A stretch of DNA of 62,028 bases, from NCBI GenBank assembly GCA_964540285.1, contig CAZILW010000002.1, positions 1 to 62,028 on the forward strand, given 5' to 3'. Of the stretch, positions 27,495-54,657 are shown in pieces. Source of the DNA: an uncultured Gammaproteobacteria bacterium. GTDB lineage: Bacteria > Patescibacteriota > Patescibacteriia > Patescibacteriales > UBA12465. The notes under the pieces were generated by a model, which was given only the letters and a program-made list of their open reading frames with translations, searched no databases and was not told the DNA's origin. The number at the start of each line of letters is the position of its first letter. The stretch's first letter is position 1. The position numbers were made by a program, and so were the translations under genes.

Positions 27495-27576
27495 GCGGGC
27501 GTGGCGAAATTGGTATACGCACTTGCCTTAGGAGCAAGCGGAGCAATCCATGAGAGTTCGAGTCTCTCCGCCCGCA
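27495..27576 (+). tRNA. tRNA-Leu(UAG), type II; CCA not encoded
   Basis: Hand-folded. Acceptor GCGGGCG/CGCCCGC; anticodon arm CTTGC-CTTAGGA-GCAAG; long variable arm; T-arm GAGAG-TTCGAGT-CTCTC. Confidence 0.9.
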
Positions 27577-29685: not shown

Positions 29686-30042
29686 TTAAAAAAAAAGGAG
29701 AATTCTCCTCTTTTTTTTGTTGGAACATTTCCATTTCCTGATATCTTGTCCTGGAAAAACTTCGCTTTTTCTTTTTGCCAAAAAATGAGCCAAAATAACA
29801 CTAATCTTATGTCTCTCTTTGTTTTTTTCCGTGTAGAAAAAGAACGACTCGTTCTGAAGTATTTCTACCTCTAGACCCATCTCTTCTTTTACCTCTCTTT
29901 CGGCCGTTTCTTTGATGTTAAATTCATAATTTTCCACTCTTCCACCGCAAAATTTCCAAAAATCATCTTCGCCGTGCTTGTTTAATAAAACCTTACCGTC
30001 TTCCACTATAACCGGCCCAGAAGCAATAATAATTTTTAACAT
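29686..30042 (-). CDS. NUDIX hydrolase
   Basis: Nudix box GGRVENYEFNIKETAEREVKEEMGLEV. Confidence 0.8.
   Translation of the reverse strand: MLKIIIASGPVIVEDGKVLLNKHGEDDFWKFCGGRVENYEFNIKETAEREVKEEMGLEVEILQNESFFFYTEKNKERHKISVILAHFLAKRKSEVFPGQDIRKWKCSNKKKRRILLFF
29688..29718. terminator. bidirectional terminator
   Basis: Palindrome AGGAGAATTCTCCT (29696-29709) flanked by an A-run and a T-run. The last codons of the NUDIX ORF run through it. Confidence 0.65.
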
Positions 30043-30205
30043 ATGCTTACTTTATTATTTTTTAAAAAGATGTTGTTAGGTTTATTATACTTAAAAAATC
30101 TTTTTTTGAAAAGTTTTTCCACAGTCACAATTTGACAAAAAATTTTTTTTGAAATATTCTTTTAAAGTATGAAAAATTGCAAAGTGCAAAAAATTAATAT
30201 TACCT

Positions 30206-30367
30206 GGTTTAGCCACATTTATATTATGGCCTGCTTTTTATTTTTATATAGAGGTCGGTTTAATTTTGCCTTTGTTGGTCCAAACTACAGAAATATGAAT
30301 AGAATTTAAGAAAAAAACAAAAACAAAGATAAGGTTAAGCCGATTGTCAAAAGCAATCGGTTTTTTT
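30206..30367 (+). promoter_or_regulatory. structured leader/sRNA-like element, copy 1 (long stem alternative to an intrinsic terminator)
   Basis: Conserved box GGTTTAGCCACATT (30206-30219). 21-bp stem 30255-30275 / 30323-30343. Terminator CCGATTG (30340-30346) / CAATCGG (30354-30360) plus T7 (30361-30367). The stem and terminator share 30340-30343. Possible -10 TAATAT at 30195-30200. Confidence 0.6.
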
Positions 30368-30419
30368 ATAAATTTATTTAATATGAGCATACAAAAAAAA
30401 TGTATAATTTATTCTTTAT

Positions 30420-30552
30420 GGTTTAGCCACATTATTATGTTGTTAATCTTTTTTTATGTAAATCGGCTTAGTTTTGCCTTTGTGAGGTTATAGGAAAAAA
30501 CAAAACACAAAGATAAAGCCAAGCCGATTGACAACAAGCAATCGGTTTTTTT
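30420..30552 (+). promoter_or_regulatory. structured leader/sRNA-like element, copy 2
   Basis: Same box (30420-30433). Stem 30463-30483 / 30507-30527. Terminator 30524-30530 / 30539-30545 plus T7 (30546-30552). TATAAT at 30403-30408. Ends 34 nt before the ATG at 30586. Confidence 0.6.
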
Positions 30553-30585
30553 GTTCTTTAAGTCTAATTAAAAAATAATTGAATC

Positions 30586-31923
30586 ATGAACAGAAATTTT
30601 ATTGAGTTGGCTGAACGTATTAGTTTGGCCTATCAGCAAGGAGGAAAAGTTGAGCTCGCTAATTTCTTAAAGCTTGAGCTAGCACTAAATGAAAGTGAGG
30701 CTGAAAAAATAGCCGAAAATTTTCAATTTCAAAAAGTGGATTGGGAAGAATTAAAAAATCTTTCTTCCGATGATTGGTTAAAATTTCAAAGTAAGAAGAG
30801 CACCAGTCATTTTAAAGATCTGGGCTTGGAGTTAAAAAGTTTTGACAAGAAAGACTCTTCCGGTGTTTGGCCAAAAAACAAATTGGCCTGGGAACTTATT
30901 AGAAAAACTAATCCAGAGGCAGAGTTTAATTTTAAAATTCCAGAAGATAGTGTTCATGAAATGGGCAAAAATAGAATCTTTTTTGAACAGGCCGGATTTA
31001 AAGGTGCGTTTAGTAAATTAATTACTATTGCTCTTGATTTGCCTGGATCTAACGGTTTGCCGCCTTCGATTAGTCATAAAGCAAAGATTTTGCTTGATAG
31101 ATTGGGCGATGTTGGCAGAGACTTGGCCATAACTCTTCTTAAGCAGGAAATAATATTTCCTCCAGAATTGATTCTTAAGAGCTTGATAAATTCTGTTTAT
31201 CGCGGCTTGCAAGGAGAGACAGTTATTATAACTGGTGCTTTTTGTCCTGATTATGAGTATCGAGTAACTGGCAGAAAAGATATTCCCTATGAATACACTT
31301 TTAAGGGTGTTGGTGGCGATATAGGATTGGTTGCTAAGCAGTTTGTAAGAATGACCCCAGCTTTAGTTGATTTCTTCAAAAGACACAAAATTCCATTTAA
31401 AATAGTTTATGGAATTGGTGATTTTGAAGCTAATGACGATTCTATTCTTAAAAGAGTGGGTCTTAGTCGAGATGAATTTATTTATCGATGTCAAAATTCA
31501 AATCAAAAATTTGTAAATTTGATGAGAAGCATGGATATTGATGTTGAGGTTCGTCTTTGCCAAGAAGAGTGGGCCAATGGTCGATGGAAAGAAAGCGTTG
31601 GTTTTTTTCAAGAGCAGTTTAATTCTGGTAATTTCTTGGAAATCAGAAAAAACACCGGCAAAAATCCTGAAAGGGAGCTTGATTTTATCGCTGAAGCTTC
31701 CAGTAATTTTTACTCTACTTGGTATAATAAGAAACTGAGTAATGAGGAATTAAAAAAAATAATAATTTCTCAGGCAACCGAGTATGCTTCTTTTGGAAAG
31801 ATTATAAAAGAAGATTTTGGAAGTAATCCCGTGATTCAATTGGCTGGAGATAGGCCAAAAATACAAATTTTTGGAAGTGCTGTTTCTAGTCATCCAGTGC
31901 TATGTGCTAAAAGAACTTATTAA
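30586..31923 (+). CDS. hypothetical protein (445 aa), no family recognised
   Basis: Long ORF with no TM or signal sequence. Locally distinctive motifs are ITGAFCPDYEY and YGIGDFEANDD. Confidence 0.6.
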   Translation: MNRNFIELAERISLAYQQGGKVELANFLKLELALNESEAEKIAENFQFQKVDWEELKNLSSDDWLKFQSKKSTSHFKDLGLELKSFDKKDSSGVWPKNKLAWELIRKTNPEAEFNFKIPEDSVHEMGKNRIFFEQAGFKGAFSKLITIALDLPGSNGLPPSISHKAKILLDRLGDVGRDLAITLLKQEIIFPPELILKSLINSVYRGLQGETVIITGAFCPDYEYRVTGRKDIPYEYTFKGVGGDIGLVAKQFVRMTPALVDFFKRHKIPFKIVYGIGDFEANDDSILKRVGLSRDEFIYRCQNSNQKFVNLMRSMDIDVEVRLCQEEWANGRWKESVGFFQEQFNSGNFLEIRKNTGKNPERELDFIAEASSNFYSTWYNKKLSNEELKKIIISQATEYASFGKIIKEDFGSNPVIQLAGDRPKIQIFGSAVSSHPVLCAKRTY

Positions 31924-32008: not shown

Positions 32009-32353
32009 ATGTATTATTCAAAAAAACAAGCTCAGAAATTTAAAATTCCAGGAGGAACTTCTGGTTATTTGTATCCAAACCATCCAAAGGGGGAGCAAAG
32101 TATAGCCCTCGTTAGCGCTAAGGGTAGATACCCAGACAGAGGTTGGTCTATTAATTCAAAATGTACAGAAACTATTTTTGTTTTGAGTGGAAATTTAAAA
32201 ATTAATGTTGATGGAAAAATATTTTATCTTAAAAGAGACGACTTAATTATGATTTTGCCTGGACAAAAATATAAAATTAGAGGCAAGGCCAAAACTCTTG
32301 ATCTTATCACTCCTTTTTGGGAGAAAGAACAAAATAAAATAATTATAGAATAA
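32009..32353 (+). CDS. cupin domain protein
   Basis: Small beta-barrel-like sequence, 114 aa, resembling single-domain cupins (ETIFVLSGNLKINVDGK...LPGQKYKIRG). Confidence 0.6.
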   Translation: MYYSKKQAQKFKIPGGTSGYLYPNHPKGEQSIALVSAKGRYPDRGWSINSKCTETIFVLSGNLKINVDGKIFYLKRDDLIMILPGQKYKIRGKAKTLDLITPFWEKEQNKIIIE

Positions 32354-32355
32354 AT

Positions 32356-33465
32356 ATGAACAAATTAATTTATGCTAATACAAAAAATAGTGATCTTTTG
32401 TATTTATTAAAGATGAACATTCCGGATCCATTTTTTTTCTTAGAAAATGACAAGGGCTCTTTTGTTTTTTTGGATTCTAGAGAGTTTGGTGTTTTTCAGG
32501 AAAAAAATAAAAACACAGAAATATCAGCTATTTTACTTGATCCGATTATTTCTAAATTACAAGCAAGCGGAAATTATTCTTTACCTAATTTAGCTAAAGA
32601 AATAATTTCTAATTATAGCAACTCTTCAAAGTTATTAGTCCCAGACAATTTTCCTCTAAATGTTTTTAATTCCTTGAAAGAGAGTAATTTTGATATTTCT
32701 GTTGATAGTGATTTATTTCCAGCCAGAAAAATAAAAGGCAGTTTAGAAATTGATTTTATAAAAGATAATTTAGATAAAACTAAAAAAGTCTTTTCTTTGA
32801 TTGAAAATATTTTAAAAGAAGCAATGATAAAAGATGATTTTTTGTATCATAAAGATGGTTTTTTAAGTAGTGAGCTGATAAAAGATATGGTCTCTAATTC
32901 TTTATTTAAGGATAAAATGTTTAATTTTGAGGGAATAATCATTTCTTCTGGGCCTCAGAGCTCAATGCCTCATCATCCTGGTTCAGGCAAAATTTTGGCT
33001 AATCAGCCAATAATTTGTGATATTTTTCCTCGCAGTTTGGAGAATAATTATTTTGCTGACATGACTAGAACTTATGTTAAAGGCAGGGCTAGTAATGAGC
33101 TAAAAAATATTTTTAACGGTGTTTTAAGTGTTCAAGAAAAAATGATTTCCAAAATTAAACCCGGAGAAAGTGGTAAGCATTTTTATGACTTAACTTGTAA
33201 AGAATTTAATAATTTGGGGTTTTTTTCTTCCAGTGAAGAGGGTTTTATTCATGGGCTTGGTCATGGACTTGGTTTGGACGTTCATGAGGGACCTTATCTT
33301 AATAAATTAGGAGAAGAAGTTTTATATCCGGGCAATATTGTTACTATTGAGCCAGGTTTGTATTATAAAAAAACTGGCGGAATTAGAATTGAAGATGTGG
33401 TGGTGATAACAGGCAGTGGCTGTGAAAATCTTACAAATTATCACAAGATGTTAGAAATAAAGTAA
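32356..33465 (+). CDS. M24 family metallopeptidase (Xaa-Pro aminopeptidase-like)
   Basis: HGLGHGLGLDVHEGP and GGIRIEDVVVIT metal-ligand motifs. Confidence 0.85.
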   Translation: MNKLIYANTKNSDLLYLLKMNIPDPFFFLENDKGSFVFLDSREFGVFQEKNKNTEISAILLDPIISKLQASGNYSLPNLAKEIISNYSNSSKLLVPDNFPLNVFNSLKESNFDISVDSDLFPARKIKGSLEIDFIKDNLDKTKKVFSLIENILKEAMIKDDFLYHKDGFLSSELIKDMVSNSLFKDKMFNFEGIIISSGPQSSMPHHPGSGKILANQPIICDIFPRSLENNYFADMTRTYVKGRASNELKNIFNGVLSVQEKMISKIKPGESGKHFYDLTCKEFNNLGFFSSSEEGFIHGLGHGLGLDVHEGPYLNKLGEEVLYPGNIVTIEPGLYYKKTGGIRIEDVVVITGSGCENLTNYHKMLEIK

Positions 33466-35345: not shown

Positions 35346-35430
35346 CGGAGAGATAGGGATTTGAACCCTAGAGAGCTTGCGCCCAAACGGTGTTCGAGAC
35401 CGTCGCCTTAAACCACTCGGCCATCTCTCC
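35346..35430 (-). tRNA. tRNA-Ser(CGA), type II; CCA not encoded
   Basis: Hand-folded on the minus strand. Acceptor GGAGAGA/TCTCTCC; anticodon arm ACGGT-CTCGAAC-ACCGT; long variable arm; T-arm TAGGG-TTCAAAT-CCCTA. Confidence 0.9.
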
Positions 35431-44702: not shown

Positions 44703-44773
44703 CGGAGTGTAGTATAATGGTAGTACGCGTGCATGGGGTGCATGTAGCCCCGGTTCGATTCCGGGCATTCCGA
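44703..44773 (+). tRNA. tRNA-Pro(GGG); CCA not encoded
   Basis: Hand-folded. Acceptor CGGAGTG/CATTCCG (one G-U); anticodon arm CGTGC-ATGGGGT-GCATG with G37; 4-nt variable loop; T-arm CCCGG-TTCGATT-CCGGG. 71 nt. Confidence 0.8.
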
Positions 44774-54583: not shown

Positions 54584-54657
54584 TGGACCTTAAGGGACTC
54601 GAACCCTTGACCCCCTGCTTGCAAAGCAGGTGCTCTAGCCAACTGAGCTAAAGGCCC
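54584..54657 (-). tRNA. tRNA-Ala(UGC); CCA not encoded
   Basis: Hand-folded on the minus strand: GGGCCTTTAGCTCAGTTGGCTAGAGCACCTGCTTTGCAAGCAGGGGGTCAAGGGTTCGAGTCCCTTAAGGTCCA. It has the G3:U70 identity pair. Confidence 0.92.

Follow-up and report, generated by a model that had tools for sequence, protein, structure and literature searches.

We examined a 62,028-nucleotide (nt) stretch of DNA, referred to here as the window, which comprises positions 1–62,028 of contig CAZILW010000002.1 (assembly GCA_964540285.1, uncultured Gammaproteobacteria bacterium; GTDB Patescibacteriota, UBA12465). A gap of 540 nt separates a NUDIX gene on the minus strand (29686–30042) from a plus-strand gene at 30586–31923, which encodes a protein of 445 amino acids (aa). 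The gap holds two consecutive units, each with a short open reading frame (ORF) and a long stem whose 3' strand also provides the 5' arm of a terminator hairpin. With a probability of about 0.75, we interpret them as two ribosome-mediated (leader-peptide) transcription attenuators in series, controlling an operon of the 445-aa gene, a cupin gene and an M24 peptidase-like gene. The elements of the gap are listed below; promoters are, here and throughout, consensus matches only, and loci of relatives carry L numbers.

30132–30160, plus strand: promoter-like site P1, TTGACA-17 nt-TATTCT, from consensus scans; kept in the relative with 95% identity
30169–30309, plus strand: putative leader ORF 1, 46 aa, MKNCKVQKINITWFSHIYIMACFLFLYRGRFNFAFVGPNYRNMNRI, from the ORF list; frame kept in the relative L015 (39 aa)
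30205–30219, plus strand: W13-F-S-H16-I codons of leader 1, read from the sequence
30252–30274, plus strand: antiterminator 1, 5' strand, inside leader ORF 1, from duplex energy, covariation and RNAalifold
30325–30346, plus strand: antiterminator 1, 3' strand, whose last 7–8 nt (30340–30346/7) are the 5' arm of terminator 1
30340–30367, plus strand: terminator 1, CCGATTG (30340–30346) and CAATCGG (30354–30360) with T7 at 30361–30367
30383–30493, plus strand: putative leader ORF 2, 36 aa, MSIQKKCIIYSLWFSHIIMLLIFFYVNRLSFAFVRL, with W13 at 30419–30421 and H16 at 30428–30430
30460–30484, plus strand: antiterminator 2, 5' strand, inside leader ORF 2, ending 7 nt ahead of the stop codon
30507–30530, plus strand: antiterminator 2, 3' strand, including the entire 5' arm of terminator 2
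30521–30552, plus strand: terminator 2, CCGATTG (30524–30530) and CAATCGG (30539–30545) with T7 at 30546–30552
30553–30559, plus strand: GTTCTTT motif after the last terminator, kept across lineages

The units are paralogous and arranged head to tail. A sequence-only reading of this DNA had described them as such; they are present where it had placed them and align with 81% column identity, but unit 1 begins at the promoter-like site at 30132–30160, outside the extent assigned to it there. An inverted-repeat scan returned long repeats at 30255–30276/30322–30343 and 30457–30484/30506–30533. On the plus strand, a terminator scan found two terminator-like sites, in both cases CCGATTG/CAATCGG followed by T7, where shuffles expect 0.3. 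The 3' strand of each long stem includes the entire 5' arm of its own terminator. For the duplex between the ORF and the terminator arm we calculated −19.4 kcal/mol in unit 1 (z = −4.6) and −24.9 kcal/mol in unit 2 (z = −5.9), and in neither case was one of 200 shuffles as good. Repeats, terminator scan and duplex z-scores together confirm the long stem that shares a strand with a hairpin and T7 run. In folding, unit 2 beats all of 200 shuffles (z = −3.2), and unit 1 alone is unremarkable (z = −1.25).

Between the two copies the stems differ by the compensatory changes that had been noticed before, which are real when read from the sequence: one A-T pair became G-C and one U-G pair became C-G. 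In addition, one U-G pair turned into U-A and one pair into an A x C mismatch in copy 2. The G-U pairs in the stems make the structure specific to the plus strand. A family covariance model run over the 62-kb window returned only the two copies, with 87 and 74 bits; the next match scored 19 bits.

Both copies share a 14-nt box, GGTTTAGCCACATT, whose only exact matches in the window start at 30206 and 30420. Its exact identity in the two copies stands, its status as a separate RNA motif does not, since the box is coding sequence: TGG TTT AGC CAC ATT encodes W-F-S-H-I inside the leader ORFs, and it is these codons that are conserved. We also considered by eye a fourth segment, in which the box pairs with the 3' strand of the stem. 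All 9 of 9 pairs form in copy 1, but the pairing is lost in copy 2 and in the 95% relative, and we rejected it.

For a comparison across species we collected loci anchored on homologs of the 445-aa protein, 27 from species-representative genomes and 24 from metagenomes. Pooled statistics refer to 36 units (window and relatives). Residue counts use one representative for each of 16 lineages, which are our own grouping of mutually unalignable sequences. Units alignable with those of the window are called group 1, and a second alignable set is called group 2.

In a large protein collection the 445-aa protein has only 24 homologs, all from Patescibacteria. In 27 of the 27 species-representative genomes the homologous gene is directly preceded by a matching unit, and all metagenome loci with enough upstream sequence carry one as well, the exceptions being two very distant homologs (28% identity). 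The relative with 95% identity retains both units, and more distant homologs (~40% identity) have one unit each, in which a short ORF begins far ahead of the stem. For the 95% relative, two short-read assemblies (L001, L004) have contigs that end 64 nt upstream of the gene, inside unit 2; the tandem repeat probably confuses assembly, and such units may for this reason be under-represented in metagenome contigs.

The arrangement is the same throughout: a promoter-like site, a short ORF of 23–46 aa (often exactly 36), an antiterminator helix, a terminator that reuses one of its strands, and the gene. It occurs across several classes, namely in Moraniibacteriota, Parcubacteria, Komeilibacteria, Andersenbacteria and Peribacteria/Peregrinibacteria. 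The sequence of the shared strand is wholly different among lineages (CCGATTG, CCGGTCT, CTGACC, CCCAGC, GCTCCCGG, GCCCCCCT), and its two partner strands always match it. This identical architecture in different sequence upstream of the orthologous gene bears out the mutual exclusivity of terminator and antiterminator that had been proposed from the window.

A terminator hairpin is present in all 36 units, and the 3' strand of the antiterminator spans the whole 5' arm of the terminator in the two units of the window and, with few exceptions, in the relatives. The antiterminator duplex has a mean z-score of −3.15, with 23 of 36 units below −2 and 16 units in which none of the 200 shuffles was as good. 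These duplex z-scores were adopted because upstream pairing of the terminator 5' arm, which occurs in 79% of nascent-RNA folds, has a high chance background (51% in shuffles).

Covariation was scored against 500 shuffles and against slid controls. Pairing in group 1 amounts to 91.7% in the outer antiterminator helix, where both sides have changed at 4 pairs, and to 95.9% in the terminator, where this is true of 5 pairs. None of the 500 shuffles reached the score of either helix, and the slid controls collapse for both. The shared columns covary with both of their partners; a C/U column, for example, has a G/A partner in the antiterminator and a G/A partner in the terminator. In group 2, 95% of the antiterminator and 92% of the terminator are paired. 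Given full-length RNAs, RNAalifold predicts the terminator; given RNAs that stop ahead of the 3' arm of the terminator, it predicts the antiterminator. The group 1 covariance model also finds the units of two lineages outside its seed. A homologous element with covarying stems is present upstream of orthologs, and selection on RNA pairing, first suggested by the two window copies, is supported by both helices in the relatives.

The leader frame is open in 36 of 36 units, and the other two frames hold stops in 33 and 27 of them. The ORF always starts with ATG or GTG a few nt past the −10 hexamer and ends at or just past the 5' strand of the antiterminator; relative to the end of this strand, the stop codon of most units falls within the interval from 10 nt upstream to 16 nt downstream. 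Insertions and deletions between close copies are multiples of 3. Mini-ORFs reading through the 5' strand of the stem had been noticed in the window, and an in-frame ORF does run through it in each unit, but the boundaries assigned to them have to be replaced by true frames of 46 and 36 aa. The start of the second at ATG 30383 was read from the sequence (the ORF list gives TTG 30344). The frame that begins there is common to the relatives, and leader ORF 2 is kept in a relative with an in-frame 3-nt insertion.

These properties of the frame bear on whether the switch might work without a ribosome, as an attenuator driven by a small molecule, a protein or a tRNA that binds the 5' part of the leader (a riboswitch, a T-box or a protein-dependent element), with the ORF left untranslated. 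Such a switch would be compatible with the real and covarying terminator/antiterminator pair and with a peptide sequence that is almost unconstrained. In group 2, moreover, the Trp-His codons sit in a hairpin, ATGCCA-N8-TGGCAT. Yet an untranslated leader is difficult to reconcile with a frame that is open in every unit and closed in most units in the alternative registers, that starts at the −10 hexamer and ends at the antiterminator, and that changes length in steps of 3 nt. Between the start codon and the antiterminator, no structure or sequence is shared across lineages beyond Trp, His and Cys codons, and the element has no match in Rfam, T-box included. We consider control by a bound ligand fairly improbable.

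In the window, the −10 hexamer of P1 ends 8 nt before ATG 30169, which argues for a leaderless or nearly leaderless transcript; among all units, 18 have a promoter-like site that ends 6–13 nt ahead of the start codon. The lack of a visible Shine-Dalgarno (SD) sequence had been counted against translation of the mini-ORFs. Unit 2 indeed has none, but this is uninformative, because an SD-like 4-mer at −20 to −4 precedes only 2 of the 48 window ORFs of at least 150 aa. To judge from these counts, the organism largely initiates translation without SD sequences. In the relatives L010, L012 and L014, GGAGG precedes the homologous gene.

The peptides themselves change quickly. Between the window and the 95% relative, differences at codon positions 1/2/3 number 6/6/9 and 3/9/6 in the two leaders vs 11/13/110 in the 445-aa gene, and the ratio of synonymous to non-synonymous changed codons is 4/14 and 1/13 in the leaders and 100/24 in the neighbouring gene. 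The leader peptides thus change about 7 times faster than the neighbouring enzyme. A "FAFV core" common to both window peptides had been pointed out. It lies on the 5' strand of the antiterminator, and the reading frame of this strand (GGAAGTTAATGG) varies among related genomes, giving G-S-stop vs W-K-L-M, so that it is conserved as RNA and not as peptide.

A few residues recur nevertheless. Trp is present in 15 of the 16 lineages (4.3 expected) and His in 16 of 16 (8.1 expected), usually adjacent to each other or a few residues apart. Cys is enriched 3.3-fold and Met 3-fold, and the acidic residues Asp and Glu are depleted five-fold; the peptides are short, hydrophobic and basic. Phe, which had been proposed as the regulatory residue of a Phe-rich leader, is enriched only 1.35-fold across the family. 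The recurrent residues are Trp, His and Cys instead, and we rejected attenuation at Phe codons. The Trp and His codons of the window are located 32–47 nt upstream of the antiterminator strand, and by our reading the conserved His of the relatives is ~16–60 nt upstream of it. In group 2 the M-P ... W-H codons form the ATGCCA-N8-TGGCAT hairpin at the conserved Trp-His site (L025 ~1780–1805, L033, L035); it could be a pause hairpin or a by-product of the conserved codons.

The mode of evolution also speaks to the idea that the short ORFs are true small-protein genes, encoding a membrane subunit or a precursor or scaffold like those of ribosomally synthesised and post-translationally modified peptides (RiPPs), with a leaky terminator to adjust how much peptide is made relative to the enzyme. 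The peptides do always adjoin the same three enzymes, their composition is biased towards Trp, His and Cys and away from Asp and Glu, and they occur in tandem copies in two lineages, as is typical of precursor-gene duplications. A small protein under selection, however, agrees poorly with their rate of change relative to the enzyme, with codon-position differences that are flat and changes that are mostly non-synonymous, and with a C-terminal part that is conserved as nucleotides and whose frame differs among relatives. Purifying selection on the peptide, or on a recognition or core segment as in RiPP precursors, was not seen; only the Trp, His and Cys positions recur. A leaky terminator would furthermore require no antiterminator strand within the ORF, yet that strand covaries. 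We regard small-protein genes as quite improbable. A frame and a few codons are kept while the rest is free, which argues for a regulatory leader rather than a small protein, a toxin or a RiPP precursor. The earlier suggestion that the ORF through the stem belongs to a leader-peptide attenuator is in this respect supported.

We found no good promoter for unit 2 in a promoter scan, which makes it probable that both units lie on a single transcript and act in series. The suggestion that they are instead two independent small RNAs is weakened by the same result and by the association of the unit with one operon in every lineage. In its broader form this explanation would have two small RNA genes, or two loci resembling type I toxin-antitoxin systems, that merely happen to be located upstream of 30586. 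Each unit does end in a good intrinsic terminator, the short, hydrophobic, basic and tandemly duplicated peptides would suit a toxin, and terminated attenuator RNAs can act in trans, as described for S. meliloti rnTrpL (PMC6614838). But toxin loci are mobile and patchy, whereas each lineage has this unit immediately before the same operon and always in the same orientation; the window contains no further copy. No conserved antisense promoter or terminator was seen in a scan of the locus, and the strand shared between terminator and antiterminator would be needless in a stand-alone gene. Independent genes are thus very improbable.

A second complete unit is also present upstream of the first in L040 (1569–1745) and L064 (1506–1680), each with its own leader ORF, antiterminator and terminator. 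The extra leader peptides read MVNIIQTATYLWLSPRR... in L040 and ...TATYLWHSLRR... in L064. This tandem duplication has its own sequence and is independent of that in the window.

Based on these observations we propose the following mechanism. Transcription would start at P1, and leader ORF 1 would be translated from a leaderless or nearly leaderless mRNA. Each unit would act as a three-segment switch, in which the last leader codons form the 5' strand of the antiterminator and the 3' strand of the antiterminator provides the 5' arm of the terminator. A ribosome that reaches the stop codon would cover the 5' strand of the antiterminator, allowing the terminator to form, and the transcript would end at ~30367 or ~30552. 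With a ribosome held at the Trp/His(/Cys) codons, or with no ribosome at all, the antiterminator would form first and the polymerase would read through. Since the polymerase would have to escape both units to reach the gene at 30586, the response should sharpen. Translation of the leader ORFs, the leaderless transcript, its start site and termination positions, the stall site at the Trp/His(/Cys) codons and the direction of the response are all predicted here from the architecture of the locus.

Equilibrium folding with a mask of ~30 nt in place of the ribosome is consistent with this mechanism in unit 2 and in a few relatives. In unit 2 the terminator has a probability of 0.07 when the RNA is free; placing the ribosome at the stop codon raises this to 0.95, whereas 0.02 results when it sits at His16.

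Several observations weigh against the proposed mechanism. The equilibrium model of unit 1 gives 0.44, 0.45 and 0.29 for the same three states, which is not a clean switch. In many GC-rich relatives the terminator wins at equilibrium under every mask, so that kinetic (co-transcriptional) control must be assumed. Kinetic control is usual for attenuators. The stop codon of window unit 1 is among the exceptions in lying 33 nt past the 5' strand of the antiterminator, which we attribute to 17 nt inserted in the loop when compared with the 95% relative. Just 9 nt separate the Trp codon from the antiterminator strand in the L010 group, and the T-run after the hairpin is interrupted or degenerate in the Andersenbacteria-type group. 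No leader contains a run of identical regulatory codons; there is usually one Trp and one or two His. Finally, unit 2 has neither a good promoter nor an SD sequence, and its translation would depend on SD-independent internal initiation, which is plausible only because the genome hardly uses SD sequences.

Downstream of the last terminator hairpin, at a distance of 0–20 nt, a motif resembling GTTCTTT (GT[TA]C[TCG]TT, often followed by nCAC/ACA) is found in 22 of the 36 units, compared with 0.018 expected per window. Examples are 30553–30559 in the DNA studied here, L014 2863–2869, L036 ~1973 and L040 ~1954. The motif is absent after the first-unit terminator in the window lineage, and its sequence is kept in lineages where all else has diverged.

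Two further features were observed between the terminator and the gene in relatives. Peribacteria-type loci (L028 ~1850–1915, L034, L041, L032 1932–1969, L022, L026 and L029) have a further conserved hairpin and motif, GGCAGCRTGYCG ... CTGCCCGACCKACG ... AGGAAAGG, which is absent from the window and might sequester the ribosome-binding site or add another layer of regulation. In L012 (2926–2945) and L018 (1772–1790) a perfect TTGACA immediately follows the T-run of the terminator and may provide the operon with a second promoter beyond the attenuator.

The operon itself consists of three genes in the window:

30586–31923, plus strand: first regulated gene, 445 aa, with a predicted fold like that of class-I aminoacyl-tRNA synthetases and cyclodipeptide synthases
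32009–32353, plus strand: cupin, conserved operon member
32356–33465, plus strand: M24 peptidase-like protein (prolidase/aminopeptidase-type), conserved operon member

The cupin and M24 genes follow the 445-aa gene in all lineages checked, with the order of the two sometimes swapped. Sequence searches of Pfam, NCBIfam and the PDB gave no match for the 445-aa protein, which belongs to a small, Patescibacteria-restricted family with the invariant motifs GAFCPDYxY and GDRPK. An AlphaFold model has a mean predicted local distance difference test score (pLDDT) of 83.6. Foldseek matches to this model are weak and consistent (best E = 4e-4, query-normalised TM-score ~0.3) and comprise the catalytic domains of the tyrosyl-, tryptophanyl- and methionyl-tRNA synthetases TyrRS, TrpRS and MetRS, MshC, isonitrile synthase and many cyclodipeptide synthases. 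The model thus hints at a class-I aminoacyl-tRNA synthetase-like nucleotide-binding fold. The invariant Cys of GAFCPDYxY is located just past the first strand of the high-confidence model core (E213–219), a position that may correspond to that of the catalytic Ser in cyclodipeptide synthases.

As the signal of the proposed attenuators, our preferred guess is a scarcity of charged tRNAs for rare amino acids in an auxotroph, which would switch on the peptidase operon. No amino acids are rarer in these proteomes than Trp, Cys, His and Met, and the operon includes a peptidase.

It is also possible, but unlikely, that the leader is a metabolite-sensing arrest peptide like TnaC, whose nascent Trp/His/Cys core would act inside the ribosome and report a substrate or product of a putative pathway formed by the three enzymes and present throughout the Candidate Phyla Radiation, or that the peptide is itself the substrate of the enzymes. 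TnaC of the E. coli tnaCAB operon likewise has a single conserved Trp, and its K-W-F-N-I resembles the L/T-W-F-S-H-I found here. TnaC acts at its own stop codon, with a fixed spacing between Trp and stop, and through Rho. The leaders described here differ in that the distance from Trp to stop ranges from 11 to 33 codons among lineages and the terminator is intrinsic; this variable spacing led us to reject membership in the TnaC-type class. If an arrest peptide or substrate peptide were nevertheless involved, it would link a new sensor to a new kind of metabolism, related to aminoacyl-tRNAs or dipeptides, in these reduced bacteria.

The sequence-only reading had recognised no named riboswitch, T-box or ribosomal protein leader in the gap, and Rfam at gathering score agrees: neither the intergenic region of the window nor any of 16 loci of relatives contains a match. 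The sole matches at this threshold in the window are the tRNA genes at 27495–27576, 35346–35430, 44703–44773 and 54584–54657. At E ≤ 10 the window region gives neither a T-box (RF00230) nor a riboswitch, and all matches are below their own gathering scores. The only named cis-regulatory family among them is Phe_leader (RF01859), which scores 25.4 and 21.0 bits and would need 55 to reach its gathering score; microRNA families are also among them. We ascribe these sub-threshold matches, Phe_leader and microRNA alike, to a U-rich/A-rich hairpin plus terminator. The literature searched contained no relevant report of a leader peptide or attenuator from the Candidate Phyla Radiation. We class the element as a new family of a classical mechanism class.

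The general model for this class comes from trpL, hisL, pheL and pheM (PMC1183508). With these E. coli leaders (pheM preceding pheST) the element shares a short leader ORF, an antiterminator and an intrinsic terminator that share a strand, and a decision that would depend on the position of the ribosome. As in pheST, the regulated gene has a (predicted) aminoacyl-tRNA synthetase-like fold. The differences are a lack of any sequence or Rfam kinship, of a run of identical codons and of an obvious "1:2" pause hairpin, together with only three segments, an mRNA that would be leaderless or nearly so and a longer leader of 23–46 aa.

A leaderless first-cistron ORF as a ribosome-dependent sensor is also known from mycobacterial short-ORF attenuators, which have a polycysteine tract and act on translation by unmasking a ribosome-binding site (10.1101/834739). 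Cys is enriched in the leaders described here too, but it recurs as a single residue, like Trp and His, and the output would be an intrinsic terminator.

Relatively long leader ORFs in which stalling blocks a terminator, with no need for a codon run, occur in bmrB-bmrCD (PMC4191407) and msrDL-msrD (PMC10314930). The genes under their control encode resistance transporters or ABC-F factors, and the response is to drugs that target the ribosome; no feature of the present locus indicates a drug, and the peptides are unrelated. Two complete attenuation units before one gene, with a steeper response expected, are furthermore found in tandem riboswitches and T-boxes (PMC12452182), where the sensors are aptamers and not, as proposed here, leader ORFs.

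Patescibacteria cannot be cultivated alone and have few recognisable regulators. To our knowledge, cis-regulatory RNA and leader-peptide control are almost undescribed in this group (Candidate Phyla Radiation). The well-covarying RNA switch described here is ready to be entered as a new Rfam-type family. Leaderless sensory short ORFs, known from mycobacteria, would here serve to control an intrinsic terminator in bacteria very distant from them, and tandem duplication of the units has evolved more than once. The conserved element marks the three-gene operon as tightly regulated and probably important, and the Trp/His/Cys codons provide a testable handle on its signal.

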